NCBI GenBank assembly: GCA_964587735.1
Contig: CAZPMB010000001.1
Coordinates: 15,464 to 79,463 of the forward strand
DNA length: 64,000 nucleotides
From: an uncultured Candidatus Bathyarchaeia archaeon
Lineage (GTDB): Archaea > Thermoproteota > Bathyarchaeia > TCS64
Direction of reading: 5' to 3'
Position 1 is the stretch's first letter, and the number at the start of each line of letters is the position of its first letter. The translations under genes were made by a program, and so were the position numbers. This document shows, piece after piece, positions 25,279 through 54,735 of the stretch. The notes under the pieces are model-generated. The model ran no database searches. It saw only the letters and a list, made by a program, of their open reading frames with translations, and was not told the origin of the DNA.

Positions 25279-26886
25279 ATGTTCACCAAACAAGGGGGGA
25301 TAATTGAAAGAAGCTTAAATAATTCCCGATCAGATGAACATTTTACAAGTTGGCCTCGAGGTGATCGGTTGAGGGAGATCAAGCAAACGGAAAGCCTGTG
25401 CCCTGAATGTCTGAAAGTACTATCAGCCACGATATTCGAGGACAATGGAAGGGTATACATGCGTAAGGTGTGCCTCGAGCACGGGGAGTACACCGATCTT
25501 TATTGGGACAGCTACGAGGACTACGAAAGGGCGCTACGTTTCGATCACCTTGGTACGAAGCTCAACAATCCGAGGACCAAGGTGAAGAAGGGCTGCCCCT
25601 TCGACTGCGGCATATGCCCCGAGCACAAGTCCCACACGGTCCTAGCCATCGTGGACGTCACCAACAGGTGCAATCTCAGGTGCCCAATATGCTTTGCTCA
25701 TGCAGGGGCCGCTGGTTACCTTTACGAGCCAACAGTCGAAGAGATAAGGGGCATGCTAGGGAATCTGATGGCGAATGATCCGGTCCCCCCTCCGGCCCTT
25801 CAGTTCAGTGGCGGCGAGCCCACCGTGCGGGATGACCTCCCGAACCTCGTGAGAATGGCAAGGGAAATGGGCTTCTTCCACATCGAAGTCAACTCGAATG
25901 GAATAAGGATGGCGGAGAGCGTCGACTACTGTAAGGCACTCAAGGACGCAGGGGTCAGCACGGTCTACCTACAGTTTGACTGCGTTACCGCTGAGCCGTA
26001 CATCGTTGCAAGGGGGCACAACCTTCTACCAATAAAGCTGAAGGCCCTTGAGAACCTCAAGGAAGCCGGCTTCCGGAGCGTCGTGCTCGTGCCCGTGCTC
26101 GTCAGAGGGGTAAACGACGACCAGGTAGGAGACATCATACGCTTTGCAATCGAGCACAACGACGTCGTGAGGTGCGTTAACTTCCAACCGGTGGCATTCA
26201 CGGGCCGGATAAACAAAGAGGATAGGGAGAAAATGCGAATTACCATCCCCGACCTTATTCGCTTGGCTGAGGAGCAGACGGACGGGCTCATCAAACGCTC
26301 CGATTGGTATCCAGTCCCATCGGTTGTCCCCTTTGTCGAGTTCATGAGCAATCTGAAGAACCGAAATTACGTGAGCTTCATGGCCCATCCCCACTGCGGC
26401 ATGGCGACATACCTAATAGTAGAAGGTGATAAAGTAAAACCAATCACCCAATACTTCGATGTCGATGGATTCATAGAGGCCCTTGAGATCGCGAACAAGA
26501 GATTGAAGAAGGGGCAAAAAACAAGGGCGAAGATGACTATGGCGTCGGCCGCCCTGAAAAAGATAGACATGGGCATGTTCCGAAAGTACATCCTTCCAGT
26601 TATTACCCGCGGTGACTACGAGAGCCTCAGCGAACTGCACCACAGGGTGATAATGATCGGCTCTATGCATTTCATGGACCCCTACAACTTCGACCTTGAG
26701 AGGGTAAACAGGTGCGTCATACATTATGCGACGCCGGATGGCAAGATCATCCCATTCTGCACAATGAACACATTGCACAGGAAGAATATCGAGAAGAAAT
26801 TCGCACAACCTCTGGACGCCTCCAAGCTCACACCCTTAGCCAATATCGATGAGCTGATGGGAAGGAAAGAAGCGGCTGACGAGTGA
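25279..26886 (+). CDS. Radical SAM enzyme, Tes/GDGT-MAS-like (candidate tetraether lipid synthase)
   Basis: 535 aa. N-terminal Cys cluster CPEC...CLEH, then CPFDCGICPEH and VTNRCNLRCPICFA (two CX3CX2C motifs), then GGEPT. The architecture is like archaeal MJ0619-type radical SAM proteins. Confidence 0.6.
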   Translation: MFTKQGGIIERSLNNSRSDEHFTSWPRGDRLREIKQTESLCPECLKVLSATIFEDNGRVYMRKVCLEHGEYTDLYWDSYEDYERALRFDHLGTKLNNPRTKVKKGCPFDCGICPEHKSHTVLAIVDVTNRCNLRCPICFAHAGAAGYLYEPTVEEIRGMLGNLMANDPVPPPALQFSGGEPTVRDDLPNLVRMAREMGFFHIEVNSNGIRMAESVDYCKALKDAGVSTVYLQFDCVTAEPYIVARGHNLLPIKLKALENLKEAGFRSVVLVPVLVRGVNDDQVGDIIRFAIEHNDVVRCVNFQPVAFTGRINKEDREKMRITIPDLIRLAEEQTDGLIKRSDWYPVPSVVPFVEFMSNLKNRNYVSFMAHPHCGMATYLIVEGDKVKPITQYFDVDGFIEALEIANKRLKKGQKTRAKMTMASAALKKIDMGMFRKYILPVITRGDYESLSELHHRVIMIGSMHFMDPYNFDLERVNRCVIHYATPDGKIIPFCTMNTLHRKNIEKKFAQPLDASKLTPLANIDELMGRKEAADE

Positions 26887-27910: not shown

Positions 27911-29323
27911 CTAAAGCAATACCCTCAAATCGTCAAGGGCATCAAGGACGCGGCGACCTTTCTCAGTTATCTTCAGCAGCCGGCGCTTACCCTCCGCTTG
28001 AGGGGTTACCAAACCCTTCTCCTCGAGATCCGACAGGTGCTGGTAGACGGCTCCTAAGGTCATCTCACGCCCCAAGCCCTTCCAAAGGGCATAGCCATAG
28101 GTATTCCTGCGCGAAATTGCCTTCAAAAGGCGCTCCTTCGTCGCCAGCCTCAAGCCAAGACCCGGAGACCTCCTCTTCCGGCTGAGGCTTTTTAGGATGT
28201 CGTTGGTCTTCAACCCACTGCTAGTGATAATGCTGACGACCGAATCGGTTCGGTCCATCGAACCCATCTCCATCAGCTTAGGAAGGCAAGCAACGGTCGC
28301 GGCGCTCGCCGGCTCCACGAACATGCCCTCAGATCTGGCGATCTCCTTCTCGAAGAACAGCATCTCATCGTCCTTTACGGACACAGAGATGCCATCAGAT
28401 TCCCTTATATCTTTCAGAGCGGCGACCCCATATTTTGGCTCAGAGACCTTTATCGCCATCGCTACAGTATTCACATTTTCTAGCTCCAGGGGCTCTCCAG
28501 CTCCGAGCCTGAACGCCTCCGTTATGGGGGAGCAACCAGCCGCCTGAACCCCGATCAACCGGGGTTTCTTCTCGATGCGCCCCATCTCTTCGAGCTCTTT
28601 GAAACCCTTCCAAATGGAGTGGATGGTGACGCCGCTGCCCATCGCCACGACCACCCAGTCAGGGACTTCACCCTGCTCCGATATCTCGTATGAGATTGTC
28701 TTGAGAGCTTCCATCGATAGTGGGTTGAGCTCTGTCGTTGCTTGGTACCAACCCGTCTCAAGGGCCAGGTCGATCGCCCTCGTAATCGCCTCTTCGATGT
28801 TTTCACTCTCCTCGTCTACAGAGGCGTCATACGCGATCATCTGTGCGAGTTTACCGATATCCACATCGCTTGGGACTATGAGGTGGCATGCGACATCCTC
28901 TTTTGCAGAGTAGGCGGCGAGAGACGCGCCGTGATTACCATTGGTGGCACAGATTATAGAGTCAAACCCTTTCCCGACGGCATCAGAGAGGATCAGCGAG
29001 GCGGAACGATCCTTGTAAGAGCTTGTCGGATTCCTTGTTTCATCCTTCAGGATCAATGTCTTGAGGTTGAGATTTTCCTCGAGCCTCTTCGCCTCCCAGA
29101 GCGGCGTCCCTCCCTCGCCCATGCTGACAGGTTTGTGGACCCGAGGCATCACGAGACGATACCTCCAGAAAGCGAGAGGCCCCGTAAACTTAACGGATCT
29201 TAAGTAGTCCGTTTCGAGCGAATACTCTAGCATCCCTCCACAATTTGAGCAGAAGAACGATTTTCCATCATCTACAGATTTCAAACCGCACAGAGGGCAC
29301 TTTAATTGAAATGGGGAGGGCAT
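27911..29323 (-). CDS. thrC: Threonine synthase-family PLP enzyme with N-terminal zinc ribbon, apparently fused to a C-terminal PadR-like wHTH domain
   Basis: CPLCG...CSNCGG ribbon; PLP-lysine motif SSYKDRSAS; C-terminal ~90 aa TYGYALWKGLGREMTLGAVYQHLSDLEEKGLV...RRLLKITEKGRRVL is PadR-like. Confidence 0.7.
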   Translation of the reverse strand: MPSPFQLKCPLCGLKSVDDGKSFFCSNCGGMLEYSLETDYLRSVKFTGPLAFWRYRLVMPRVHKPVSMGEGGTPLWEAKRLEENLNLKTLILKDETRNPTSSYKDRSASLILSDAVGKGFDSIICATNGNHGASLAAYSAKEDVACHLIVPSDVDIGKLAQMIAYDASVDEESENIEEAITRAIDLALETGWYQATTELNPLSMEALKTISYEISEQGEVPDWVVVAMGSGVTIHSIWKGFKELEEMGRIEKKPRLIGVQAAGCSPITEAFRLGAGEPLELENVNTVAMAIKVSEPKYGVAALKDIRESDGISVSVKDDEMLFFEKEIARSEGMFVEPASAATVACLPKLMEMGSMDRTDSVVSIITSSGLKTNDILKSLSRKRRSPGLGLRLATKERLLKAISRRNTYGYALWKGLGREMTLGAVYQHLSDLEEKGLVTPQAEGKRRLLKITEKGRRVLDALDDLRVLL

Positions 29324-41682: not shown

Positions 41683-41819
41683 GGTGTTCTCCCTCAATCA
41701 ACGGCGACGGCCGAATGGGCATCACTAACTTTTTTATAGACACAGTTTGGTTCGTTATAGAGGTCTGACGAATAGATGAATCGGTTTTATCCACAAATCG
41801 GTGAAGATAATTGAACGCG

Positions 41820-42842
41820 ATGTTATTGGAAAAGGTTAGGATCCCCTGGGCGGTGGCAAACCTGTCAAAGGAATACAAGGTCTTCGGCCCTGTCACCCGG
41901 AGATCTTATGTGTCGTTCCAAGAAATACCCAATGGAGAAGGGCTCAATCTCGAATATACTACTACCACATTGCCCCCTAAGAAGCTCTTCCACCACGCTG
42001 AGACATTATTACATTACCATAAAGAAGATTTCTCTGCCCCAAAGTTAGAATCAGATCAACATGTCCTGCTGTTTGGCGTACACCCATGCGACCTCAATGC
42101 CATCCAAAGGATGGACAAGTTCTTCTCGAAGGACTACATTGACTCATACTATTGTAGACGACGGGAAAGGTCGGCAATAGTTGCCCTCAACTGTGGAGTA
42201 CCAGATGACAAGTGCTTCTGCGCCTCCCTAGGAACTGGCCCCGACGTAAAAGAGGGGTTCGACCTACTCTTGACGGATCTAGGAGAGGCTTACCTTGTGG
42301 AGGTTGGGACCTCAAAGGGCAAAACCATGGTCGCAAAGCTAGGACTCAAGAACGCCTCTCAGACCCATTTCCACGAGAAGGCAAGGCGACTTAGAGAGGC
42401 AAGTAAAAAGTTTAAAAAACAAATCCGGATGGAGGGACTGGCAAAACAAGCAGCCGAGAATCCTAACCACGAGGCCTGGGCACTCATTGGCGACAGAGGA
42501 GGTCTCGCCGGCTGTTTCGCGTGTCTGTCCTGCGGTAACTGCAGCATGGTCTGTCCAACGTGCTACTGCTACGAGGTCGCAGAAATCCCCGATGTCTCAC
42601 TGAAAGAGGGGATCAGGAAAAGGGAGCTCGACTCTTGCCAGCTCCTAGAGTATGCCCTGGTGGCCCTCGGCCAGAACTTCAGGCCTGATAGGAGGTACCG
42701 TACACGCCATTGGATGACTTGTAAATTCGGTGGTGCTGGCGGACAGCAGAACACGAGCTGTGTGGGATGTGGCAGGTGCATCAGGTCTTGTCCCTCCCAC
42801 ATCGACCTGACCGAGGTGGCAAGGAGCCTCTGGGGGGAGTGA
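41820..42842 (+). CDS. hydB: Group 3b NiFe hydrogenase beta subunit (sulfhydrogenase HydB / AsrA-like Fe-S subunit)
   Basis: Two [4Fe-4S] motifs CLSCGNCSMVCPTCYC and CVGCGRCIRSCP. First gene of the four-gene hyd operon. Confidence 0.75.
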   Translation: MLLEKVRIPWAVANLSKEYKVFGPVTRRSYVSFQEIPNGEGLNLEYTTTTLPPKKLFHHAETLLHYHKEDFSAPKLESDQHVLLFGVHPCDLNAIQRMDKFFSKDYIDSYYCRRRERSAIVALNCGVPDDKCFCASLGTGPDVKEGFDLLLTDLGEAYLVEVGTSKGKTMVAKLGLKNASQTHFHEKARRLREASKKFKKQIRMEGLAKQAAENPNHEAWALIGDRGGLAGCFACLSCGNCSMVCPTCYCYEVAEIPDVSLKEGIRKRELDSCQLLEYALVALGQNFRPDRRYRTRHWMTCKFGGAGGQQNTSCVGCGRCIRSCPSHIDLTEVARSLWGE

Positions 42843-42843
42843 T

Positions 42844-43689
42844 ATGGAGAATCCGTTGATGCCGAGGAAGGCTATCATCAAGAAGATCGAGATAGAGACC
42901 TACGACTCCAAGACTTACACGTTCGAGTTCGAAGACGGAGGCCCGAAGGGATTGGATTTCAACCCCGGTCAGTTCGTTATGTTATCCATATTAGGGTATG
43001 GAGAGGCTGCAATATCCATAGCCCATGACCCCGATGACAAGTCAGGGCTCGACCTGACGATTAGGAACGTTGGGAGCGTTACTGACGCCCTGTCCCGCAT
43101 GAAGGTCGGGGATCTGGTCGGCATAAGGGGGCCTTACGGCAACGGCTGGCCAATAGATGACGCTGTAGGAAAACGAATACTATTGATCAGCGGTGGTTGC
43201 GGATGCGGCACCATCACGCCCATCATCCTGGCTCACAGGAACGACCAGTCTAGGTTCAAGTTCGTGGAGGTCCTCCATGGCGCGAGGACCCCCAACGACA
43301 TCATCTACAGGAAACACTACGAGGAGATCTGGCCTAAAATCCCTAACTGCAACGTGCTGCTATCATCCGACACGGTGCCACCGGGACAGACGTGGAAACA
43401 CAAGGTCGGCTTCGTCTTATCGCTGTTAAAGGATATGAAGTCCACACCTGAGGACACACTGGCCTTCATGTGCGGGCCAGAGGTCATGATGAAGTTCACC
43501 GCCCTCGACATGTTGAAAATGGGATTCTCCGAGGACCAGATCTACTGCTCCATGGAGAGGAGGATGAGGTGCGGCTTAGGGCTCTGCGGCCACTGCCAGC
43601 TTGGTTCAAAATACGTCTGCAAGGATGGACCGGTCTTTTCATATGCGGAGCTGCAGGAGCTCCCGGATCACATTATAAGGGGGAGCTGA
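42844..43689 (+). CDS. hydG: Group 3b NiFe hydrogenase gamma subunit (FAD/NAD(P)-binding, [2Fe-2S])
   Basis: FNR-like fold (FNPGQFVMLS...GGCGCGTITP) and C-terminal CSMERRMRCGLGLCGHCQ cluster motif. Confidence 0.8.
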   Translation: MENPLMPRKAIIKKIEIETYDSKTYTFEFEDGGPKGLDFNPGQFVMLSILGYGEAAISIAHDPDDKSGLDLTIRNVGSVTDALSRMKVGDLVGIRGPYGNGWPIDDAVGKRILLISGGCGCGTITPIILAHRNDQSRFKFVEVLHGARTPNDIIYRKHYEEIWPKIPNCNVLLSSDTVPPGQTWKHKVGFVLSLLKDMKSTPEDTLAFMCGPEVMMKFTALDMLKMGFSEDQIYCSMERRMRCGLGLCGHCQLGSKYVCKDGPVFSYAELQELPDHIIRGS

Positions 43690-43690
43690 T

Positions 43691-44446
43691 ATGTCGAAGC
43701 TGAAGTGTGGTTTCTTCAAGTTCACGGGCTGCGCGGGCTGCCAGATGGAAGTCCTTAGGGCAGAGGATGTCCTTCCTCAGATGCTAGAGCACGTTGAGAT
43801 AGCTTATTGGCCCATGGTGACCAGCAAGGGCTGGGAGGTGGATCTAGACGTTGCCTTCATAGAGGGCTCTGTCTCGACGCCAAGGGAAATTAGGGAGATC
43901 AAAGAGATCCGTGAGCGAACCAAGGTCTTAGTTGCCTTTGGCGATTGCGCGGTCACGGGCTGCATCCCCTCGATCAGGAACTTCATGACCCAGAGAGAGG
44001 CTGAGAAGGCAGTCTATCTGCATCCTTCTTGGATTGAATCGATCGGATTGAGGGGCATCTATGAGTACGTTGATGTGGAGGTCAGCCTGCCCGGGTGCCC
44101 GCCCCACAGAGACACCATCCTAGAGGTTGTAAAGGGGGCCGCACTCAAAAGGAGGCCCTACCTCAGGCGCCACGCTGTCTGCATCGAGTGCAAGCTAAAG
44201 GACAACGGCTGCCTCCTCACCGAGGAGAAACGACCGTGCATGGGACCTGTGACAAACGCTGGTTGCGGGGCAATCTGTCCAAGCTATAATCGCGAGTGCG
44301 AGGGGTGTTATGGTCCAATGAGCGCCCCAAACGCTGAATCCCTAGCAAAGATCCTTCTGGAGACGGGTATCACAGAGGAGGACGTGAAGAGGAAGTTCCG
44401 GAAGTATGCCGGTTGGACTCCAGATTTCATTAGGGAGGCGATGTAG
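43691..44446 (+). CDS. hydD: NiFe hydrogenase small subunit (group 3, delta)
   Basis: FTGCAGCQMEV...GDCAVTGC...LPGCPP proximal/medial cluster ligands. Confidence 0.85.
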   Translation: MSKLKCGFFKFTGCAGCQMEVLRAEDVLPQMLEHVEIAYWPMVTSKGWEVDLDVAFIEGSVSTPREIREIKEIRERTKVLVAFGDCAVTGCIPSIRNFMTQREAEKAVYLHPSWIESIGLRGIYEYVDVEVSLPGCPPHRDTILEVVKGAALKRRPYLRRHAVCIECKLKDNGCLLTEEKRPCMGPVTNAGCGAICPSYNRECEGCYGPMSAPNAESLAKILLETGITEEDVKRKFRKYAGWTPDFIREAM

Positions 44447-44447
44447 A

Positions 44448-45734
44448 ATGAAAGAGCGCGAGATAAGAGTCGAGTACGTGTCCAGGGTCGAAGGTCAAGG
44501 AGCAGTTGACCTTTTCGTCTCAAAGGATGGGGAGCTCATAGACGCCAAGGTCCGCGTTTATGAGCCCACTCGCTTCTTCGAGGCTCTTATGGTTGGGAGA
44601 AAATACGACGAACTCATGGAGCTTGCAGCTAGGATCTGCGGCATCTGCCCTGTCTCCCACGAGATAACGGCTCTTCGGGCCGTTGAGGAGGCCATTGGCC
44701 TAGAGGTAAGCGAGGCTACCAAGAGACTAAGAAAGCTAATGGCGATGAGCGCCTTCATCAGCAGCCACGTACTCAGCATCTATTTCCTCACCCTACCTGA
44801 TTACTTCGGATATAACGACCTCATCGAGGTGGCGAAGGAGAACCCTGAACTCTTGAAACGGGGCTTTGAACTTAAGAAACTAGGCAATGACCTGACAGAG
44901 CTGATCGGTGGTAGATCCGTCCACCCCGTCACTGCGGTCGTCGGCAGGTTCACCAACGCGATAAAGAAGCGGGATGCTGAAACGATGAGGAAGCGCTTTA
45001 TCGAGGCTAAAAGTGATGCTCTGGAGACTGTTGACCTCTTCAAGGGGCTGGAGATACCGAAGTTCACGAGGAAATGCGAGCATATGGCAATCAGCAGTCC
45101 CGAGGAATATGCCATCAACGAGGGAATGCTCGCCTCCACGGAAGGGATCAAAGTTCCTCAGAGGGAGTACCGACAGTTTGTCGAGGAAAACCAGGTACAA
45201 CACTCGAACGCCAAGCACTCAAACGTGAAGGGTCGAACATCCTATCTCGTTGGGCCACTCGCAAGGGTCAACATCAACTTAGATCAGCTGTCCCCGGATG
45301 CGAGAAGAGCGGCTAAGAGCGTGGGGCTTAATGTCCCGAACTACAGCCCATTCAAATCGCCTATCGCCAGGGCTGTAGAGGTCGTCCACTGCATCGACGA
45401 ATGCGCAGAGATCCTTGAAACCATGCCATATAGCGAGGAGCCCAGCCTGATCAAGTTGAGGGCAGGTGACGGCTATGCCATCACGGAGGCGCCTAGGGGC
45501 ATCAATTACCACCATTATTCACTGAATAGGGGTGGCATCGTAACAAAGGCGGACATTGCGCCACCAACCTGCCAGAACTACAGGAACATGGAGATGGACC
45601 TCATAGAGCTCGTTCCCACCATCCTAGACCTACAGGACGATGAGATCGCTCACAGGTGCCAGATGCTCATACGGGCGTACGACCCCTGCATCTCATGCTC
45701 GGTCCACTCCATTAAGATTCACAAGGTAAAATAA
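44448..45734 (+). CDS. hydA: NiFe hydrogenase large subunit (group 3b, alpha)
   Basis: N-terminal RICGICPVSH (RxCGxCxxxH) and C-terminal DPCISCSVH (DPCxxCxxH) Ni-Fe ligands. ATG at 44448 is 1 nt after the hydD stop. Confidence 0.9.
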   Translation: MKEREIRVEYVSRVEGQGAVDLFVSKDGELIDAKVRVYEPTRFFEALMVGRKYDELMELAARICGICPVSHEITALRAVEEAIGLEVSEATKRLRKLMAMSAFISSHVLSIYFLTLPDYFGYNDLIEVAKENPELLKRGFELKKLGNDLTELIGGRSVHPVTAVVGRFTNAIKKRDAETMRKRFIEAKSDALETVDLFKGLEIPKFTRKCEHMAISSPEEYAINEGMLASTEGIKVPQREYRQFVEENQVQHSNAKHSNVKGRTSYLVGPLARVNINLDQLSPDARRAAKSVGLNVPNYSPFKSPIARAVEVVHCIDECAEILETMPYSEEPSLIKLRAGDGYAITEAPRGINYHHYSLNRGGIVTKADIAPPTCQNYRNMEMDLIELVPTILDLQDDEIAHRCQMLIRAYDPCISCSVHSIKIHKVK

Positions 45735-46378
45735 ATATGGGGCTGCGTTTGTGGGTCATGTCGTCAAGATCACCTAAAAGCTCAGCGATGCCTTCCCTGA
45801 AGTTTAAACGTCTCAAAAATGAAGTTCTAATAAAATCCATTTATCGTACGTGTGCAGACGGTTAGGTAATTAGTACGAAATGATTTTAGGGTTAACAGTG
45901 TAGAATCATTCCATTTCAAATATTATATTCCAACATCTGCATTAACACTGCTCCAAGGCATTGCGAGAAACAGGGTCAGCGCGGGCCGACACGAGAGGAA
46001 GTCCCTCGGATTGCCTTTGAGACGGAGCGCTAAGGCTTTGGAGGCAATTAGACTTTCACTTCAAGGGGCCAGGGGACCGGTGAAATCCTTTATACCTTCT
46101 AGAAGGAATAAGGAGTTTTCCGCATGAGAACGGTCTTCACCGAGAGGGACAGGAGGCTTCTGGGGCAACATAAATTCAACAAGGCTATAGCAGAACCCTA
46201 TCATGTTACCCCGCGTCGTTGAATGGTCATAAGGGGTTCAATTTTATTAATTTCAATGGGAAGTCTTTTTGATGTTTGATGATCATTGACGTCAGTGGAC
46301 CGATTAAGCCTCTGTGCAACTCAGCTTTTTTTTTGGAATAAAACCGTCCATGAATTGATGTAATCTGAAGGTGTGGGA

Positions 46379-49084
46379 TTAAGAAACTCTTACTGTCTTC
46401 TCCACCCGAACTGCACACACCTTGAACTCGGGTATCTTAGATACGGGGTCAAGCGCAGCATTGGTTAACAGGTTGGCGGCGGCCTCCGAGAAATGGAACG
46501 GTATGAAGATTGAGCCCTCTGGTGAGCGCTCCGTAATATTGGCCTTAGCCACAATCACGCCCCTTCTAGACTCGACCCTTACCTCTTCCCCGTCCTCCAC
46601 GCCTAAACGCTTCGCGTCGTTAGGGTTAATCTCAACCAAGCACTCCGGGATTAAAGTGTCAAGGACCTCGGACCTTCTGGTCATTGTCCCTGTGTGAAAG
46701 TGCTGGAGCAGTCTCCCTGTCGTGAGCAAGAGGGGGTAATCTTCGTCGGGGTACTCCGCCGGTGAGATATACTCAACGGCGTGAAAACGCCCCTTCCCGC
46801 GGGCGAACTGATCCCTGTACATGAACGCCGTTCCAGGGTGATTCATGTTAAGGCAAGGCCATTGAAGGCCACTAGTCTCGAGCCTGTGGTGGTGAACCCC
46901 TCCGTATATAGGAGTCAAAGCTGCGATTTCATCCATTATATCAGATGAGGAGCCATAACTCATCTTGTAGCCCATCCGGCCAGCGAGTTTACAGACGATC
47001 TCCCAGTCGGGTAAGCTTGTGCCTATGGGCTCTATTGCCTTCCTGACGATCTGAATGCGACGTGCCGTATTCGTGAATGTCCCGCCTTTCTCTGCGAATG
47101 ATGTGGCTGGCAGCACGACATCAGCTATCTGTGCAGTCTCTGAAAGGAAGATGTCTTGGACAACGAGGAACTCCAGTTTACCGAGCGCCTCCCTGACATG
47201 GTTCAGATCGGGGTCGCTCATCAAAGGGTTCTCCCCTATCACATAGAGCCCCTTCAGGCCGCCATTGTAAGCAGCATTGATCATCTCCACAACGGTAAGG
47301 CCTGGCTCACCGCTGAGGGAAACACCCCAAGCCTCCTCAAACTTGATCCTTGTAGCCTCGTTGTCAATCGACTGATAACCAGGATATATGTTAGGGAGCG
47401 CGCCCATGTCACAGGCTCCCTGAACGTTGTTCTGCCCTCGCAGCGGGTTGACCCCTGTAGACTCCCGGCCCACATTCCCCGTGAGCATGGCGAGGTTCGC
47501 CATCGAAAGCACGTTGTCCGTACCCGTTATGTGCTGCGTGATGCCCATGCTGAAGACTATGGAGGCCTTTTCAGCGCCTCCGAAGAGGATCGCCGCCTCC
47601 TTGATCGCATCCTCGGGTACCCCAGTGATCTCCTCGACTAGGTCTGGCGTGTATCTCTCAACCGTTCTTTTGAATTCCTCGAAGTTCTCGCAACGACTTC
47701 GTATAAACTCCTCGTCGTGCAGGCCTTCATCAATGATGACATTCATCAGGCCGTTCAAAAGTGCTACATCAGTGCCGCCCCTCTGCCTCAGCCAAATAGT
47801 GGAGTGGTCGACGAGGTCTATCTTCCGGGGATCTGCGACGATAAGCTTCGCTCCCCTCTCGATGATGGCCTGTTTTATGTACATGGCGATGACCGGGTGG
47901 TTCTCGGTGGTATTGGAGCCTGTGACGAAGATGACATCTGCGCCCAGCAGTTCCCTGATGGAGTTCGTCATGGCGCCTGAACCGAAGGCCTTCGACAACC
48001 CGGCGACCGTGGGCGCGTGACAGAGCCTGGCGCAGTGGTCTACGTTATTATTGCCAAAACACATACGCACAAATTTCTGAAAGATGTAGTTATCCTCGTT
48101 AGTACACTTGGCCGATGCGAGGCCCGCAAGAGCGCTGTTGCCATATACTCTTTTCAGTTCCTGGAATTTTGAGGCGACCAGATCCAATGCCTCATCCCAT
48201 GTGGCTGGCTCGAGCTTGCCTTCTCTTTTTATCAGAGGGGTAGTAAGCCGGTCCTGGGAGTTAACCCAGTCGTAGCCGAAACGTCCCTTGACGCATAGGC
48301 TCCCCCTATTCTCCACACCGCCTTCTGCGCCCCTCACCTTGACTATCCGCCCGTCTTTGACATACAGCTCCACAGTGCAGCCCACGCCGCAGTAAGGGCA
48401 AGTGGTATCCACTCGCTTCAGCTCCCACCACCTCCCCATGAATCTAGACTGCTTCTCTATCAAGGCGCCAGTGGGGCACACCTGCAGGCACTCTCCGCAG
48501 TAGGTGCAGTCTGTATTGATTAGCGGCTGGCTCATACCGGACGCGATCCGGACATCGCTCCCGCGCTCCACGAAACCCAGGATATGCTCAACCCTCTCAT
48601 CTTGGCAGGCAGAAACACACCTGCCACAGAGAATGCATTTACTGGGGTCGCGTATGATAGCCGGGCTTGAACTGTCAGCAGGATCATTGGGTTCAACGAT
48701 CTCGAAGCTCAGACTGTCCATATCGATCTCCATATCGTATGCTAGGTCCTGGAGATCGCAGTTACCGTTGCTCTCACACGTGAGGCAGTGGATCTTGTGC
48801 CTCGTGAGAAGCAGTTCCACCACCATCTTGCGGGCCTGTCTGACCCTTTCGCTGTCGGTACGAACGATCATGCCTTTCCTGATGGGTGTAGCGCACGATG
48901 CCTCCAATCGCGGGGCTCCCTCTATCTCGACGACGCAGACGCGGCAGGCCCCCGTTATAGGAAGTCGGGGGTGGTGGCAGAGTGTTGGGATGTGTACGCC
49001 ATTCTCCTTGGCAGCCTCAAGTATGGTCTGACCGGACTTACCTGAGACCCTTCTCCCGTCGATTGTCAATTCAATTTCGCTCAT
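46379..49084 (-). CDS. fdhA: Formate dehydrogenase catalytic subunit, FdsA-type (NuoG-like [2Fe-2S]/[4Fe-4S] N-terminus + Mo/W-bisPGD domain), Cys-type
   Basis: N-terminal 2Fe-2S ferredoxin (CHHPRLPITGACRVC), CTYCGECLQVC / CPYCGVGC, and active-site VDHCARLCHAPTVAGL (Cys codon, not TGA). The ATG at 49084 has a GGTGG Shine-Dalgarno. Confidence 0.9.
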   Translation of the reverse strand: MSEIELTIDGRRVSGKSGQTILEAAKENGVHIPTLCHHPRLPITGACRVCVVEIEGAPRLEASCATPIRKGMIVRTDSERVRQARKMVVELLLTRHKIHCLTCESNGNCDLQDLAYDMEIDMDSLSFEIVEPNDPADSSSPAIIRDPSKCILCGRCVSACQDERVEHILGFVERGSDVRIASGMSQPLINTDCTYCGECLQVCPTGALIEKQSRFMGRWWELKRVDTTCPYCGVGCTVELYVKDGRIVKVRGAEGGVENRGSLCVKGRFGYDWVNSQDRLTTPLIKREGKLEPATWDEALDLVASKFQELKRVYGNSALAGLASAKCTNEDNYIFQKFVRMCFGNNNVDHCARLCHAPTVAGLSKAFGSGAMTNSIRELLGADVIFVTGSNTTENHPVIAMYIKQAIIERGAKLIVADPRKIDLVDHSTIWLRQRGGTDVALLNGLMNVIIDEGLHDEEFIRSRCENFEEFKRTVERYTPDLVEEITGVPEDAIKEAAILFGGAEKASIVFSMGITQHITGTDNVLSMANLAMLTGNVGRESTGVNPLRGQNNVQGACDMGALPNIYPGYQSIDNEATRIKFEEAWGVSLSGEPGLTVVEMINAAYNGGLKGLYVIGENPLMSDPDLNHVREALGKLEFLVVQDIFLSETAQIADVVLPATSFAEKGGTFTNTARRIQIVRKAIEPIGTSLPDWEIVCKLAGRMGYKMSYGSSSDIMDEIAALTPIYGGVHHHRLETSGLQWPCLNMNHPGTAFMYRDQFARGKGRFHAVEYISPAEYPDEDYPLLLTTGRLLQHFHTGTMTRRSEVLDTLIPECLVEINPNDAKRLGVEDGEEVRVESRRGVIVAKANITERSPEGSIFIPFHFSEAAANLLTNAALDPVSKIPEFKVCAVRVEKTVRVS

Positions 49085-49093
49085 TGAAACCAC

Positions 49094-52000
49094 CTATTCA
49101 TTCAGCTTCCTGTCACAGTGGAGGCACCTTTTCGCCTCCTCGATGACGTCATTCAGGTTATAACCTTGCTCGACCTCCCTGAAGCCCAGGGCCCTCTCCT
49201 CTGGAGGGAGGAGGAGGGCTTCTACTCTTCTCTGCTCAACTATTTCCGCTTCTAAATCGAATGGAATTTCGTCGATCCTTGCCTGTTTCCTAGCCACCTC
49301 GACCAGCTTCCCGTTACCGCCCAAGAACTTGTCGATGGCCAAAGCAGCCTTTATTCCATCGGCTATTGCCTCGATAACCGTCGCAGGTCCCCTAACAACA
49401 TCTCCTCCGGCGAAGACGCCCGCCTTACTGGTCTCCATGGTGTCCTCGTCCACGATGAGGGTTCCTAATCTGGTCGTAGAGATCTCTCCCTCGCCGGTAA
49501 AGAAGGAGAGATCAGTAGTCTGACCAACTGCGACAATGACCGAGTCGACGTCCACCGTAAACTCTTGACCTTCGACAGGCACGGGCCTTCTTCGACCGCT
49601 GCTGTCAAATTCACCTGGCCTGAGCTGAGAGCACAACATCTGTGCTACTTTCCCACCTTCACCTAGGATTTTCGTCGGCACGGCCATGAATCTGAACCTG
49701 ACGCCTTCATTCTCAGCCTCGGTGACCTCCTCGTCGGTAGCTGTCATGTCCTCCCTCTCTCTTCGATAGTACACGGTGACTTCTTTTCCCCCGAGCCGAA
49801 TCGCCGACCTGGCGGAATCGATGGCAGTGCTGCCTCCACCGATGACTGCAACTTTTTCGCCAAGCTCGACCTTCTTCCCGAGGTTGATATCCATCAAGAA
49901 CCGCACACCCTCGTGGACTCCCTCAAGGCCTTCGCCCTGAATCCCAAGAGCCCTGCCACTCTGTGCACCTACGGCCAGATAGACAACCTTGAACCCCTGT
50001 CCAAAAAGGTCGTTGAAAGTGAAGTCCTCCCCCAGACGCTGGTTTGTCTTGATCTCGACATCAAGTTCGCGTATGGCATCGATCTCGGCATTTAGGATGT
50101 TCTTGGGAAGCCGATAATTGGGTATGCAAACGGCCATCATTCCCCCGGCCACCGGCAACGCCTCGAAGACAGTGGCTTCGTAGCCCATCATGGCCAGGTG
50201 GTAGGCGGCAGTCAGCCCAGATGGTCCCGAGCCCACGACGGCCACCTTCACACCCCTCGTACTCCTTTGATAGAGCTTCGGAGCGGCACTCACGTAGTCC
50301 GAGACGAATCTCTTGAGCAGCCGCAGGGCTACTGGGTCATCGGTTTCACCTCGCCTGCACTTGAACTCGCATGGGTGGTTGCAGATGCGTCCACAGACAG
50401 AGGGGAAGGGGTTCCTCTCCCTGATCAGCGATAGGGCCTCCCCGAACCGGCCCTCTGAGATCAGAGCCACGTACCCATGGGTATCCAGGCCTGCGGGGCA
50501 GGCGTTCTGGCAGGGGGAATCGAACAGGGCTTCGCAGACCCCTGCAGGGCACTTCTTGTACTTAATGTGGGCCTCGTACTCGTCCCTGAAGTACCTGATG
50601 GTGGAAAGGACCGGGTTAGGGCCCGTGCGCCCCAGGCCACAGAGAGCTGTGTCGACTATGATATGAGCCAATTCCTCGAGATGCTCGATGTCTCCCTCCC
50701 TCCCCTCACCCGTCACAATCCTCTCCAAGATATCCAGCATTCTCTGGAAGCCCTCTCGACAAGGGGTGCACTTCCCACAGGACTCGCTCAGGCAGAACTC
50801 TAGGAAGTACCGGGCGATGTCGACCATGCAGGTGTCCTCATCCATGACAACAAGACCACCAGAGCCCATAATAGCCCCTAGTTGGTCCAGTGTCTCGTAA
50901 TCCGCAGGAACGCTAAGCTGTTCCTTCGGTATACAGCCCCCCGAAGGGCCTCCGCTCTGTACCGCCTTGAACCTCTTTCCTCCCTTGCATCCCCCGCCGA
51001 TGTCGTAGATGATCTTACCCATCTCCGTCCCGATGGGCACCTCGATCAATCCGGTGTTATTTATATCGCCGACAAGAGAGTAAACCTTCGTCCCTGCGCT
51101 CCGTTCTGTCCCTATTATTCTATACGCTTCTGCTCCTTTCCGAATGATCAACGGAACGTTTGCTAGGGTCTCCACGTTGTTCAGAGCGGTCGGCTTACCC
51201 CAAAGCCCCTTCTCGGATGGGAAAGGCGGTCTCGGTCTCGGGACTGCCCTCTTACCCTCAATTGAGGCAAGCAGAGCGGTCTCCTCTCCACAGACGAAGG
51301 CGCCTGCCCCCATCCTCATTTCGATGTCGAAATCGAATCCTGATCTAAAGATGTCTTTTCCAAGCAAGCCACATTCCCTCGCCCGCTCGATGGCCAGCTT
51401 TAACCTGCTAACAGCGAGGGGATACTCCGCTCTGATGTACACATATCCTTTGTTGGCGCCTATGGCGTAGCCTGCGATTGCCATACCCTCGATGACGCTG
51501 TGCGGGTCACCCTCTATGAGGCTCCTATTCATGAAAGCCCCCGGATCGCCCTCATCACAATTAGCCACTATGTATTTGGTATTCCCGCCAGCTATTCGCG
51601 TCAGGTGCCATTTGAAGCCGGTTGGGAAACCTGCGCCACCACGTCCCCTGAGCAGCGCAGCCCTAACCTCTTTAATGACATCCTCAGGCGTCATCGAGGT
51701 AAGAACCCTTGACAACGCCTGGTAACCATCTTTTTTAATGTATTCCTCTATCCTCGTCGGATCTATGTTGCCGCAGTTTCTAAGGATGTTTTTTGTCTGG
51801 TGTTTGAAGAAGGGGATATCGTCCATTGTTGTAAATGCATCTTTACTTACAGGGTCTACGTAGAGAAGGCGCCCAACAACCTCCTTATTGACTATCGTCT
51901 TTGAGACAATTTCAGGGACATCATCCGGTTTCACGTGAAAATAGCAGAATCCTTGGGGGTAGATCGTGACCCTCGGCCCATTTTCGCAGAAACCAGCGCA

Positions 52001-52204
52001 TCCTGTCTCCTTGATTCCCGAGACTAGCATGTTTAAACCCCGTTCCTCAAGCTCCTCTCTAAGTGTGGCAACGATTTTATCGGCGCCTTGAGACAGGCAG
52101 CCCGTTCCCAAACACACGGCGATGAACGGTTCGTTGGGATCGCTCTGGGCAATTATTTCCTTTCTGAGTCTTTCTAGATCAGAGGGCGAGTTTAAGTGAT
52201 CCAA
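49094..52204 (-). CDS. FDH beta-like subunit: fusion of thioredoxin-like [2Fe-2S] + NuoF-like (FMN/NAD) + 2x[4Fe-4S] + GltD-like FAD/NADPH oxidoreductase (1036 aa)
   Basis: AVCLGTGCLSQGADKI...CAGFCENGP; NuoF FMN motif GRGGAGFPTGFKWH; CDEGDPGAF; then CGRICNHPCEFKCRRG; VAVVGSGPSGLTAAYHL; VAVIGGGSTAIDSARSA. TTG start with a GAGGAAG Shine-Dalgarno. Confidence 0.85.
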   Translation of the reverse strand: MDHLNSPSDLERLRKEIIAQSDPNEPFIAVCLGTGCLSQGADKIVATLREELEERGLNMLVSGIKETGCAGFCENGPRVTIYPQGFCYFHVKPDDVPEIVSKTIVNKEVVGRLLYVDPVSKDAFTTMDDIPFFKHQTKNILRNCGNIDPTRIEEYIKKDGYQALSRVLTSMTPEDVIKEVRAALLRGRGGAGFPTGFKWHLTRIAGGNTKYIVANCDEGDPGAFMNRSLIEGDPHSVIEGMAIAGYAIGANKGYVYIRAEYPLAVSRLKLAIERARECGLLGKDIFRSGFDFDIEMRMGAGAFVCGEETALLASIEGKRAVPRPRPPFPSEKGLWGKPTALNNVETLANVPLIIRKGAEAYRIIGTERSAGTKVYSLVGDINNTGLIEVPIGTEMGKIIYDIGGGCKGGKRFKAVQSGGPSGGCIPKEQLSVPADYETLDQLGAIMGSGGLVVMDEDTCMVDIARYFLEFCLSESCGKCTPCREGFQRMLDILERIVTGEGREGDIEHLEELAHIIVDTALCGLGRTGPNPVLSTIRYFRDEYEAHIKYKKCPAGVCEALFDSPCQNACPAGLDTHGYVALISEGRFGEALSLIRERNPFPSVCGRICNHPCEFKCRRGETDDPVALRLLKRFVSDYVSAAPKLYQRSTRGVKVAVVGSGPSGLTAAYHLAMMGYEATVFEALPVAGGMMAVCIPNYRLPKNILNAEIDAIRELDVEIKTNQRLGEDFTFNDLFGQGFKVVYLAVGAQSGRALGIQGEGLEGVHEGVRFLMDINLGKKVELGEKVAVIGGGSTAIDSARSAIRLGGKEVTVYYRREREDMTATDEEVTEAENEGVRFRFMAVPTKILGEGGKVAQMLCSQLRPGEFDSSGRRRPVPVEGQEFTVDVDSVIVAVGQTTDLSFFTGEGEISTTRLGTLIVDEDTMETSKAGVFAGGDVVRGPATVIEAIADGIKAALAIDKFLGGNGKLVEVARKQARIDEIPFDLEAEIVEQRRVEALLLPPEERALGFREVEQGYNLNDVIEEAKRCLHCDRKLNE

Positions 52205-52220
52205 TGATCATCTTCCTCGG

Positions 52221-52697
52221 CTAGCTGTATCTGGATAGTATCTCAGGAATTTTGGTAACGGTTACATGGCTGTACAGGTCCTTGTCAAGCCTGACGACAG
52301 GCGCTAGGGCGCATGCCCCCATGCAACGGATGGATTCGAGTGAAAACCTCATGTCTTCTGTCGTCTCCCCTTCCTCGATCTGCAATATATCCTTTACATG
52401 CATCATTATCCTCTTGCCCCCTCGGACGTAGCACGATGTACCCAGACACACGCTGATAGAATGCCTGCCCTTGGGCACCATAGTAAAGAGATTGTAAAAG
52501 GTCACAACCCCGTATACTCTTGTGAGGGGCACGTTGAGCACCTTCGCAATCTCAGCTTGTACATCCTTGGGAAGATAACCAAAAACCTCTTGAGTCTGAT
52601 GTAAAACCTCGATAAGGGACTCCGGTTTACCCCTGTGTTTGGCAATAATATCTTTTAGTTTCGCTGCATTTTCCTCATTAGCCAGTATCGATTCCAT
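52221..52697 (-). CDS. NuoE/HoxE/FdsG-like thioredoxin-fold [2Fe-2S] ferredoxin subunit
   Basis: 158 aa with CLGTSCYVRGG...CMGACALAPVV. First gene of the fds-like operon. Confidence 0.8.
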   Translation of the reverse strand: MESILANEENAAKLKDIIAKHRGKPESLIEVLHQTQEVFGYLPKDVQAEIAKVLNVPLTRVYGVVTFYNLFTMVPKGRHSISVCLGTSCYVRGGKRIMMHVKDILQIEEGETTEDMRFSLESIRCMGACALAPVVRLDKDLYSHVTVTKIPEILSRYS

Positions 52698-52746: not shown

Positions 52747-53733
52747 TTACAAGGCCGAACGGATTCTTCGGCTCATCTCAATCATGGGGTGAACACCCCT
52801 CCTCTTTGCCATCGTTATAAGCAAAAAGAGAGCACAACCAGGGAGGAGTAATAAAGCCAGCTGATTAAAGGCCCTATAGAACAATGGAGTCTCTTTCTGT
52901 AGCAGCCATGTGATGGGCATCGTGCTCGCTTCTCCCTCCCACCACAAGCTCGGCGTGATCCAGGTAATCCACCGGACCAGATCGCAGCCTAGCGGGATCA
53001 TGACGAGGACAAAGTGATAAAGCCAGAACATTAATCCGGCATCGTCGTCATCGAACGCGAAAGGTGCGAGGAGGCACCCTACATACCAGGATATCAAAGT
53101 TAAGAACTCCAACTCCTTGTGGTAATCTGATACGAACCAGAAGGCGAGGAAAACTATGGGGCCCATAATGAACGGGGTAAGAATTAACCAGGGGAACCTA
53201 CCCCCAGACCTTGCATCCCTCTTATCTGGCATCAAATAATCCGCGAAGAAGATGATAGCCATAAGACCGGCGACGAGGAAGAAGCCTCTCGACGTCTTGA
53301 TGAGCAGGGGAAAATAGCCCAGTACGGGGACTCTATAAATCACCTTCCCCATTACATTCCCCTCCCTGACTGGTTGGGCGTCCTCAACAGGGTTATGGTC
53401 CCCCTTGGTCACGAACCACCACGTTCCGCTCCTGTTGAATTTTTCCACGGCCCTGTGGACGATGTACTCGTCAGAGGAGGTAGACCTCAAGAAGACTATG
53501 ATGTCGCCCTCGGGCTGTGGCGCAGCCACCACATCCCCGAACTCATCTATGTGGTCAACGAGGATGAAGTCCCCGACCTCGAGAGTCGGGACCATGCTCC
53601 CGGAGACAACAACCATGATGGGGTATTGTGTCTTCAAGGTCAATTTCAGCACATGAACGCCCCCAAAGAGGGCGACGGCAAGGACCACAAAGAAGGTGAA
53701 GTACTTCGCGTACTCGATCAAGCCGTCGCCCAT
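52747..53733 (-). CDS. Signal peptidase I (S26 family, archaeal Sec11-like) with extended C-terminal membrane region
   Basis: VVVSGSMVPTLEVGDFILVDH catalytic-Ser box and a downstream GDHN region. 328 aa with extra transmembrane helices. Confidence 0.6.
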   Translation of the reverse strand: MGDGLIEYAKYFTFFVVLAVALFGGVHVLKLTLKTQYPIMVVVSGSMVPTLEVGDFILVDHIDEFGDVVAAPQPEGDIIVFLRSTSSDEYIVHRAVEKFNRSGTWWFVTKGDHNPVEDAQPVREGNVMGKVIYRVPVLGYFPLLIKTSRGFFLVAGLMAIIFFADYLMPDKRDARSGGRFPWLILTPFIMGPIVFLAFWFVSDYHKELEFLTLISWYVGCLLAPFAFDDDDAGLMFWLYHFVLVMIPLGCDLVRWITWITPSLWWEGEASTMPITWLLQKETPLFYRAFNQLALLLLPGCALFLLITMAKRRGVHPMIEMSRRIRSAL

Positions 53734-53760
53734 ACCTGGATCTTCCCTCAGTCTGTGAAT

Positions 53761-54114
53761 CTACGAACTCTTATTCGAGTCCACCCAAGCTGTCAGCAGA
53801 GGGCAGTTTATGGGCGACATCTGGCCACCGGTGAAGCACTTGTCCAGCTCTTCACAGGTGATGCATGGGCAATCCTTTATTGAGTCGATTGTGACGGGCT
53901 TCGTTTGGGAGAAGAGCTTGTAGGTCCACCTCCCCCCATGGAGCACCTTCCTCCTCTCCACAACGCCCTTCTCCTCGAACTTAAGGGAAAGCCTCGAACC
54001 CTCTCGACTCGTTACACCAAGCTTCTTCCACATCTCGCTCTGGAGTACGCCACCGCTCTCTGCATCCAAGATCAGCTGCAACGCCTTTCTTTCTAAATCG
54101 TTATTCCTTGGCAA
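53761..54114 (-). CDS. Winged-helix protein with C-terminal Cys cluster (putative DNA-binding regulator)
   Basis: 117 aa: LQSEMWKKLGVTSREGSRLSLKFEEKGVVERRKV wHTH-like; CPCITCEELDKC. Confidence 0.4.
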   Translation of the reverse strand: MPRNNDLERKALQLILDAESGGVLQSEMWKKLGVTSREGSRLSLKFEEKGVVERRKVLHGGRWTYKLFSQTKPVTIDSIKDCPCITCEELDKCFTGGQMSPINCPLLTAWVDSNKSS

Positions 54115-54135: not shown

Positions 54136-54696
54136 CTACTCATAGTAGATGAGTTCATCCTCTTCTAAGATTCCGTGCAGCTTGTGCACGGCCTCCTTGA
54201 CCATGTCCTCGTGCTTGGCCCCCGTGCAAACGAGCTTGCCACTCGCGAACAGGAGCATCACCACCTTCGGCGAACCCATCCTGTAGATGAGGCCTGGGAA
54301 CTGCTCCGGCTCGTACATCACGTTCTCCAAGATGTCAGCGGCTGTCTCAAGGTCGATCTTGCCGTGGAGGTTGGCGGAGGCGACGATGTTCTGGATCACA
54401 ATCTTAGGCTTCCCGAGGATGATGATTCCGTTGTTCTTAAGCTCCCTCACAACCTTGTTCACCGCGCTCCTCGCCATCTTCTCCGACTTTGACCCGGTAC
54501 AAACCATCTTCCCCGAGCCGAAAATCAGGGTTGCGGTCTTGGGACGCTTGAGCCTGAAGACGAGCCCGGGGAACTGCTTGGGGCGATACTCCACGTTCCT
54601 GAAGACCTTCATTATCGCGAGTAGGTCGATCTTCTGGTCTAGAGAAGCAGAGGCTACTACGTTCTCGATGCTTATATCCACTTTCTTCTCGGACAT
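54136..54696 (-). CDS. tbp: TATA-box binding protein
   Basis: Two direct repeats (IENVVASASLDQKIDL...FPGLVFRL / IQNIVASANLHGKIDL...FPGLIYRM). The start at MSEKK (54696) could instead be 54708. Confidence 0.9.
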   Translation of the reverse strand: MSEKKVDISIENVVASASLDQKIDLLAIMKVFRNVEYRPKQFPGLVFRLKRPKTATLIFGSGKMVCTGSKSEKMARSAVNKVVRELKNNGIIILGKPKIVIQNIVASANLHGKIDLETAADILENVMYEPEQFPGLIYRMGSPKVVMLLFASGKLVCTGAKHEDMVKEAVHKLHGILEEDELIYYE

Positions 54697-54735
54697 TCGA
54701 TACACCACACGATGCGAAGGCTTGAGCAGCAGCTC

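Follow-up and report, generated by a model that had tools for sequence, protein, structure and literature searches.

A fused BfuB-GltD flavoprotein subunit in a predicted formate dehydrogenase operon of an uncultured Bathyarchaeia archaeon

In a 64,000-nt stretch of contig CAZPMB010000001.1 from an uncultured Candidatus Bathyarchaeia archaeon (GenBank assembly GCA_964587735.1, positions 15,464 to 79,463; hereafter the window), a single gene encodes a flavoprotein of 1,036 amino acids (aa) in which, as judged from its sequence, a bifurcating-type BfuB/HydB core is continued by a GltD-type FAD/NADPH module. The gene lies between those of a NuoE-like protein and a formate dehydrogenase (FDH) catalytic subunit on the same strand, and the operon is predicted to specify a three-subunit soluble FDH of the Bfu family, composed of a NuoE-like BfuC, the fused subunit, and FdhA in the BfuA position. 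Enzymes of the Bfu type hold a key place in the energy metabolism of anaerobes, and the site and mode of their electron splitting are debated; Bathyarchaeia are abundant uncultured sediment archaea. Tentatively, we read the enzyme as one in which NADP(H) takes the place of ferredoxin, so that formate/CO2 would be coupled to both NAD(H) and NADP(H), a reading to which we give slightly less than an even chance and which is weighed below against its rivals.

Architecture of the fused gene and its operon

The fused gene is an uninterrupted open reading frame (ORF) of 1,036 codons plus stop on the minus strand (Table 1). It starts with TTG, which lies 16 nt past the stop codon of the NuoE-like gene and is preceded ~9 nt upstream by a GAGGA Shine-Dalgarno-like motif, and its 3′ end directly abuts the GTG start of the 904-aa FdhA gene. 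Since the source is a metagenome-assembled genome (MAG), it is fair to ask whether two genes had been joined by a missed stop or frameshift, and an earlier note on this DNA had named the NuoF–GltD junction as the place where such a flaw might hide. No stop or frameshift was found there, and no evidence in favor of an artefact emerged. An identical NuoE–fusion–FdhA stretch is present in the independent Logan assembly of SRR8539650 (L001; L-numbers denote the loci among the matches listed, which the locus comparisons cover), and a cluster at >90% identity holds proteins of 1,035–1,037 aa on further NCBI, JGI, ENA, and Logan contigs. Residues 535–580, which span the junction, show no gap and strong conservation across 40 homologues whose identity goes down to 52%, and a junction-spanning query of 161 residues hit 114 clusters (50% identity, E ≤ 1e-30; 1.84 billion representatives searched), mostly as one stretch. 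The same domain set in a protein of ~1,000–1,060 aa recurs in all 120 of the 120 homologues among the matches listed, and the fusion is also found in complete genomes of cultured Moorella and Zhaonella. Moreover, because a CxxC in the C-terminal tail belongs to a cluster motif that begins just after the junction and needs this tail for its completion, the two halves appear structurally interdependent. The chance of an artefact is thus negligible, and the fused ORF is a real gene rather than an assembly join.

Pfam placed five domains on the protein, namely 2Fe-2S_thioredx (PF01257, residues 25–102, E=1.6e-6), Complex1_51K (PF01512, 180–351), NADH_4Fe-4S (PF10589, 462–546), Fer4_20 (PF14691, 557–639), and Pyr_redox_2 (PF07992, 653–950). 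The segment GRGGAGFPTGFKW occupies residues 187–199 within Complex1_51K, its GRGGAGFP loop being residues 187–194, and the two Rossmann signatures are GSGPSG (658–663) and GGGSTA (789–794), the latter followed by YRR (813–815). An AlphaFold2 (AF2) model of the whole fusion reached a mean pLDDT of 88.6 and a pTM of 0.84. When it was compared with known folds by Foldseek, it split in the same way as the sequence does, into halves matching BfuB-like and StnC/NfnA-like chains, and no single chain among the solved structures covers more than half of the fusion (TMq ≤ 0.53).

Residues 1–562 constitute, by alignment and conservation, a complete bifurcating-type BfuB/HydB with the B5 site, the FMN/NAD(H) pocket, B1, and B2. 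The B5 ligands (C31, C36, C69, and C73) are invariant in alignment A1 and kept in 41–46 of 46 fused homologues, the B1 ligands (C476, C479, C482, and C522) are invariant across fused homologues, and the B2 residues (H546, C459, C552, and C557) are invariant in 46/46 and correspond, at an offset of +22/23, to H524, C437, C529, and C534 of Tsi NfnB. The B2 site may hold Zn or a [2Fe-2S] cluster, the sequence fitting either. Further signatures of the family are A223-F224-M225, F303, and G418-GPSG-422 (offset +22 relative to Tsi NfnB) as well as E308, which are kept in 45–46 of the 46 fused homologues with the exception of F224 (37/46). The AFM, Phe281, and GGPSG elements (T. sibiricus NfnB numbering) have been reported as typical of bifurcating BfuB and absent from non-bifurcating homologues, and the Glu equivalent to E308 is reported to select NADH over NADPH (Xiao et al., 2025, PMC12018979). 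The best PDB match of residues 28–562 was the NiFe-HydB of A. mobile (7t2r_B, 739 bits); HydB of A. woodii, T. kivui, and T. maritima, StnB, and NfnB scored 635–711 bits, compared with only ~375–400 bits for the non-bifurcating FdsB and Nqo1/NuoF. An FdsB-like, non-bifurcating beta subunit was therefore considered and rejected, given the B5 and B2 sites, the GltD module, and an FdsB score about half of that of BfuB.

The C-terminal domain of a canonical BfuB is ferredoxin-like, carries two CX2CX2CX3CP motifs (for clusters B3 and B4), and is part of the ferredoxin site (PMC12018979). No CxxCxxCxxxCP motif was found in the fusion or in 50 fused homologues scanned, whereas 26 of the 36 plain BfuBs in the same scan had at least one. 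The alignments of PDB BfuBs to the fusion end 55–65 residues short of the C-termini of those chains, and the GltD module begins 8 residues past the last B2 cysteine, topologically at the B3/B4 position. On this sequence evidence the B3/B4 domain is absent, with the GltD dicluster domain (Fer4_20) in its place. The earlier note had counted four modules, among them a ferredoxin of its own. Because the GltD module sits where B3/B4 normally sit, the protein is better described as a two-part fusion, made up of a BfuB that lacks the ferredoxin-like tail and of a permuted GltD module, and the separate ferredoxin was rejected, as its region is the Fer4_20 domain of the GltD module and lacks the CxxCxxCxxxCP motif. 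What that note had said of the remaining parts, a thioredoxin-like 2Fe-2S domain, a NuoF FMN/NAD(H) unit, and a GltD-type FAD/NADPH unit in one polypeptide, agrees with the Pfam domains and both Rossmann signatures, and the NuoE-like gene upstream and the adjoining FDH catalytic subunit are indeed in place.

The GltD module is of a particular type. Residues 563–1031 matched NfnA/StnC chains best (9bov_A, 424 bits; 9n5u_A, 411; 8oh5_C, 350), against ~300 bits for NfnB/NfnL (NfnB, 303) and ~212 bits for the GltD of glutamate synthase. HMMER splits the match to T. maritima NfnB (4ylf_B), aligning the body of the module to NfnB residues 45–462 and the last 33 residues, LLPPEERALGFREVEQGYNLNDVIEEAKRCLHCD, to NfnB residues 11–43; because of this split, with the tail going to the NfnB N-terminus, the module is read as circularly permuted relative to NfnB, as in StnC/NfnA. 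The canonical GltD topology, in which the module starts with the CxxC-bearing helix, was not found, and that segment lies at the C-terminus instead (residues ~1000–1031). Its two cysteines, C1027 and C1030, are kept in 44/46 fused homologues, the tail is modelled by AF2 at a pLDDT of ~88–92, and its CxxC probably completes one [4Fe-4S] cluster of the module. The ligand set of Fer4_20 is full (C565, C569, C604, C608, C612, C616, and K631) and invariant in fused homologues, and so are, in the homologue alignment, the FAD motif G658-x-G660-x-x-G663 and the NADPH motif G789-G-G-x-x-A794 with Y813-R814-R815. K631 aligns with K170 of StnC, a ligand of the FAD-proximal cluster, at a position where NfnB has Glu, and the StnC flavin has been shown to be non-bifurcating (Kumar et al., 2023, PMC10482914). 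The module is accordingly classed, from its motifs, with the StnC/NfnA type and predicted to carry two [4Fe-4S] clusters (one with a Lys ligand), an FAD, and an NADPH-type Rossmann site.

A bifurcating FAD like that of NfnB was considered for this module and found unlikely, since Lys replaces Glu, the permutation is that of StnC, and NfnA/StnC chains score higher. No NfnA/PyrK-like gene occurs in the FDH operon; a PyrK-like gene does lie at 42844..43689, as part of the neighboring hydrogenase operon. Since the GltD flavin looks like the non-bifurcating StnC/NfnA type, any bifurcation would sit at the FMN site. The fused subunit would then hold two nucleotide sites of different predicted specificity, an FMN site with the NADH-selecting Glu and an FAD site with GxGxxA and YRR.

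The partner subunits fit this assignment. The best PDB matches of the NuoE-like protein are the HydC chains of bifurcating enzymes (7q4v_C and 7t2r_C, 149–158 bits), compared with 90 bits for FdsG. FdhA scores 913 bits against TIGR01591 (cut-off 666), and its best PDB matches, both full-length at 773–814 bits, are 7vw6_A and 6tg9_A (M. extorquens W-FDH and R. capsulatus FdsA). Its active site comprises C358-H359 in RLCHA and the catalytic Arg in PLRGQNNVQG, its residues 6–216 carry Fer2_4, NADH-G_4Fe-4S_3, and Fer4 domains, and on these features it is assigned as a bona fide FDH alpha subunit. The FdhA genes of five bacterial loci (L002, L007, L009, L044, and L086) have an in-frame stop at the C358 position, which may encode a selenocysteine; such genes are split by gene callers, for example into 356 + 524 aa in L086.

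Proposed reaction and competing explanations

For the reaction in which NADP(H) would play the role of ferredoxin, the following electron path is proposed. Formate would be oxidized at the Mo/W center of FdhA, and the NuoG-like clusters would hand the electrons on to B1 and FMN. At the FMN/B1/C1 site they would be split, one branch reducing NAD+ at the FMN, and the second running over the mobile C1 of the NuoE-like subunit to the two GltD clusters, the FAD, and finally NADP+. The overall reaction would be 2 formate + NAD+ + NADP+ <-> 2 CO2 + NADH + NADPH. A bifurcation-type reading is reasonable because the NuoF half carries residues typical of bifurcating Bfu enzymes. To this extent the suggestion of the earlier note, that the architecture is one expected for transhydrogenation or bifurcation, is retained as a prediction from sequence, while the GltD flavin, which looks to be of StnC/NfnA rather than NfnB type, is unlikely to be the bifurcating one. 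The stronger claim, that formate/CO2 (or H2 in hydrogenase-linked relatives) is coupled obligatorily and 1:1 to NADH + NADPH, which would make it a new type of bifurcation/confurcation reaction, is more doubtful than the general reading.

What such coupling could offer was considered in the reductive direction by a simple Nernst estimate at 0.1 atm CO2. The formate ceiling was ~0.9 µM with NADH alone (−280 mV), ~42 µM with NADH + NADPH together (mean −330 mV), and ~2 mM with NADPH alone (−380 mV). Because NADH + NADPH raise the formate ceiling above that of NADH alone, a fermenter or syntroph would gain a useful electron sink from a confurcating CO2 reductase and, if coupled, the same energetic logic would apply to H2 in the hydrogenase-linked relatives.

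Several points weigh against a coupled enzyme that uses NADP(H) in place of ferredoxin. Formate (E0′ ~−430 mV) lies uphill of both NAD+ and NADP+, so that electron flow to either is downhill and the oxidative direction needs no obligatory bifurcation. Deletion of B3/B4 abolishes bifurcation in HydABC of T. kivui (PMC11829005), and by analogy a core without B3/B4 may not bifurcate at all. For the glutamate-synthase domain of a fused HydB, the acceptor guessed by Greening et al. (2024, PMC11216029) was ferredoxin and not NADP+, and the NADP(H) and NAD(H) specificities put forward here are read from motifs. The first two of these points would equally favor an FDH free of energetic coupling, in which electrons exit independently at the FMN to NAD+ or at the FAD to NADP+. 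It would further accord with the NADP-dependent FDH of Moorella thermoacetica, which uses a GltD-like beta subunit (PMC5736913), and with the NAD(P)-linked group 3b-like hydrogenase encoded next door. Such an enzyme would let the cell draw either NADH or NADPH from formate according to need, or use either of them to reduce CO2. We nevertheless hold it to be unlikely, as the core keeps B5, the B2 His, AFM, and GGPSG, which are reported in bifurcating BfuB and not in FdsB/NuoF and are conserved family-wide, and as its NuoE-like partner groups with HydC; of a non-bifurcating FDH one would expect an FdsB-like subunit, and FdsB scores about half as well.

A different possibility is that ferredoxin has kept its place and docks, as on NfnB, at the dicluster domain of the GltD module, with FAD/NADP(H) as an extra port that brings the enzyme to four. 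The two [4Fe-4S] clusters of the GltD-like subunit do lead to ferredoxin in NfnAB (PMC10482914), Greening et al. proposed "likely ferredoxin" as the acceptor for this domain in the fused HydB (PMC11216029), and all Bfu core signatures are kept. The module, however, is of the StnC type by its Lys ligand and permutation, and in Stn it is merely an input wire for NADPH; moreover, the intact and invariant motifs of the NADPH site point to NADP(H) as a true substrate. A docking site for ferredoxin at this domain seems unlikely to us, and so does its corollary, a complex that unites an Nfn-like transhydrogenase and a bifurcating FDH dependent on ferredoxin and NAD. Lastly, relatives of the module were first described as the sulfide dehydrogenase SudA and as NsoC, a sulfur oxidoreductase that depends on NADPH (PMC7483475), and it could be imagined to serve a non-nucleotide acceptor, such as polysulfide or sulfur as in SudA and Nso or another small molecule, with NADPH as one partner. 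Nothing in the locus indicates sulfur metabolism and the NADPH-site motifs are invariant, which makes this explanation very improbable.

The replacement of ferredoxin by NADP(H) remains the reading we favor. As a widespread natural variant, the fusion would either define a new coupled reaction, with NADH + NADPH driving formate or H2 production, or show that the Bfu core can run uncoupled, and either outcome would inform the mechanism of bifurcation. If obligatory coupling were true, it would be a natural construct whose "low-potential" branch can be read optically as NADPH. For Bathyarchaeia, it suggests a possible link between formate, H2, and both nicotinamide pools.

Distribution and genomic setting

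Full-length fusions at 46–59% identity occur in many bacterial phyla and in archaea. Cultured carriers are Pelotomaculum terephthalicicum, several Moorella species, Zhaonella formicivorans, and Anoxybacter fermentans. Among bacterial MAGs, the fusion was found in Thermodesulfobacteriota, Armatimonadota, Atribacteria, Chloroflexota, Actinomycetota, Nitrospiraceae, Acidobacteria, Spirochaetes, Verrucomicrobiota, Planctomycetota, and others; it is also present in an archaeal MAG assigned to Thermoplasmatales (L015), where a short NuoG-like gene comes next. A NuoE-like gene lies just upstream of the fusion in nearly all loci in which the upstream flank is present.

The downstream partner varies. 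In about half of the loci, including those of Moorella and Zhaonella, it is an [FeFe] hydrogenase HydA with H-cluster motifs, and a full FdhA follows in the window and in L002, L007, L009, L032, L034, L041, L044, L085, L086, and L087. A short NuoG-like protein follows in L010 and L029, with a [NiFe]-hydrogenase large-subunit match within a few kb in L010; in L029, a second NuoE/BfuB pair comes in between. In five bacterial loci (L005, L006, L029, L036, and L038), a second NuoE plus plain BfuB pair is found downstream and a NuoG-like gene after it, so that each cluster holds two different flavoprotein cores. In L084 (8001..12841), whose fusion is at 62% identity the closest non-FDH relative among the matches listed, the next genes encode a NuoG-like protein of 275 aa and a CCG-domain (HdrB-like) protein, which suggests another, third substrate for the same core. 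Because the partners vary in this way, the fused BfuB-GltD appears to be a reusable core module of which the FDH-linked form is a minority. In a neighbor-joining tree of BfuB cores, drawn without support values, fused and plain proteins are interleaved.

In the public annotations consulted, the fused proteins bear names such as "NuoF", "HndC", or "FAD-dependent oxidoreductase", and no NCBIfam model matches them at its cut-off, which exposes an annotation gap for a widespread family. The papers on the Bfu family and on the Stn/NfnABC structures, in the passages searched, place a GltD-like module on the A subunit and describe none on B. In the open-access literature, to which the search was confined with subscription journals outside it, no description of a BfuB-GltD fusion with an FDH was found, and the sole mention found of a HydB with a "glutamate synthase domain" is that of Greening et al. 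(Cell, 2024, PMC11216029). The FDH-linked form is thus new to the literature searched, while the fusion itself is common in sequence databases. The statement of the earlier note that these parts are usually separate accordingly applies to characterized enzymes and not to sequence databases, in which the fusion spans many phyla, mostly with [FeFe] hydrogenase.

Table 1. Features of the fused gene and of its neighbors, in window coordinates
Feature	Coordinates	Strand	Basis
Whole fused gene, BfuB(HydB/NuoF)-type core + GltD-type module, 1036 aa	49094..52204	-	ORF, Pfam, AF2
Thioredoxin-like domain (Bfu B5 site), residues 25-102, predicted ligands C31, C36, C69, C73	51899..52132	-	Pfam PF01257
NuoF-type FMN/NAD(H) core + B1 [4Fe-4S], residues 142-547	50564..51781	-	TIGR01959 match 142-547, Pfam
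Bfu B2 hinge site (H546, C552, C557, plus C459 of the core), directly before the GltD module	50534..50569	-	Conservation
GltD/DPD-type dicluster domain (Fer4_20), residues 557-639; C565, C569, C604, C608, C612, C616, K631	50288..50536	-	Pfam PF14691
FAD and NADP(H) Rossmann domains, residues 653-950	49355..50248	-	Pfam PF07992, alignment to NfnA/StnC/NfnB
C-terminal tail, residues 993-1031, ending C1027-x2-C1030	49112..49228	-	Split HMMER match to 4ylf_B
NuoE-like/BfuC subunit, 158 aa, [2Fe-2S] C1 cluster	52221..52697	-	Pfam PF01257 E=2e-51
FdhA, 904 aa, NuoG-like Fe-S N-terminus + Mo/W-bis(pyranopterin guanine dinucleotide) (bisPGD) FDH catalytic domain, Cys type	46379..49093	-	Pfam, TIGR01591
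Group 3b-like NAD(P)-linked [NiFe] hydrogenase, four genes, convergent with the FDH operon	41811..45734	+	Pfam

The four genes of the convergent hydrogenase operon (Table 1) encode a beta subunit with Fer4_22, a gamma subunit with FAD/NAD domains, and the small and large subunits; their best NCBIfam matches are sulfhydrogenase subunits, all below cut-off. The convergent arrangement is kept in L085, an 82%-identical relative, and hints at a redox hub for formate, H2, and NAD(P)H. The 645-nt gap between the two operons (45735..46378) contains no ORF of >63 aa and has a counterpart of ~250 nt in L085; Rfam gave no match in it. Upstream of the NuoE-like gene (52747..54114, minus strand) lie genes for a multi-pass membrane protein of 328 aa, whose N-terminus weakly matches signal-peptidase S26, and for a 117-aa winged-helix-like protein that ends in CPCITCxxxxKC, a possible regulator; L001, the independent assembly, has ORFs of these two sizes at the matching places. 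Beyond them, at higher coordinates, is a TATA-box-binding-protein-like ORF (54136..54708), recognized by its translation alone. The archaeal host is also borne out by the GluRS encoded in the window, whose named homologues are all from Ca. Bathyarchaeia/Bathyarchaeota.

[quoted passage not shown] A radical S-adenosylmethionine (SAM) protein that carries an HMPTM zinc ribbon and belongs to the pterin methyltransferases of methanopterin type is encoded at 25279..26886 (plus strand) and hints at a tetrahydromethanopterin (H4MPT)-based C1 pathway in the host; if such a pathway operates, the methyl branch would not begin with this FDH. At 27911..29323 (minus strand), a 470-aa protein combines a PALP (pyridoxal phosphate-dependent) enzyme with a C-terminal PadR-type winged-helix domain, an unusual fusion of enzyme and regulator. 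In the whole window, no tRNA gene and no Rfam family at the gathering threshold was found. A scan for promoters and terminators gave no more matches than in shuffled sequence; the consensus was bacterial and the host is archaeal, and its results were left unused.

Comparison with known systems

The closest relatives of the N-terminal half are the BfuB/HydB subunits of HydABC from T. maritima, T. kivui, and A. woodii, of NiFe-HydABCSL from A. mobile, and NfnB/StnB, to which residues 28–562 align end to end at 50–56% identity (up to ~65% over shorter modelled chains) and with a TM of 0.85–0.95. Like them, the fusion has B5, B1, B2, the FMN/NADH pocket, AFM/GGPSG, and a HydC-type partner; unlike them, it has the last 55–65 residues, the B3/B4 domain, replaced by a GltD-type FAD/NADPH module of 475 residues. 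For residues 563–1031, the best match in both sequence and fold is StnC/NfnA of the Sporomusa-type Nfn and NfnABC (8oh5_C, 9bov_A, and 9n5u_A), with which the circular permutation (CxxC helix after the FAD domain), the Lys at the K170 position, and the NADPH motifs are shared. In Stn/NfnABC, however, the module forms an insertion within the A subunit, which is NuoG-like, and passes electrons from NADPH to B1 as a mid-potential donor, whereas here it is placed on the C-terminus of the B subunit, at the usual ferredoxin exit, and the A subunit is, by its sequence, a true FDH.

By description and modelling, the HydB of the archaeal group F hybrid [FeFe]/[NiFe] hydrogenases of Greening et al. (PMC11216029) is apparently the same kind of fused subunit. 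It is reported from Bathyarchaeia and Thermoplasmata and was modelled on NuoF-like and glutamate-synthase small-chain templates, the role of the domain being predicted. Its partners are hydrogenases, whereas that of the window fusion is an FDH, and the ferredoxin acceptor was suggested there without analysis of the ligands, permutation, or NADPH site of the domain.

Among FDHs, FdsABG (R. capsulatus and C. necator) and the W-FDH of M. extorquens have a catalytic subunit that resembles FdhA over its full length, with the Cys-His/Arg site and the NuoG-like clusters, and FdsABG likewise consists of three subunits of the NuoE, NuoF, and NuoG-FDH types. The window fusion differs from FdsB, which lacks the B2–B5 sites and the GltD module and belongs to a non-bifurcating, NAD-specific enzyme. 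NfnAB/NfnSL (T. maritima, 4ylf; P. furiosus, 5jca) shares the GltD-like fold with two [4Fe-4S] clusters, FAD, and NADPH (~300 bits), yet in NfnB the FAD itself is bifurcating, a Glu is found on the proximal cluster, and NfnA is the partner, whereas the fusion has Lys, is permuted, and is accompanied by no NfnA-type subunit. Finally, FdhAB of Moorella thermoacetica, likened here by description, reacts with NADP(H) via a beta subunit with 4Fe-4S, ferredoxin-type, and NADP-binding domains (PMC5736913); it is without the NuoE/NuoF core and hence without a second nucleotide site.

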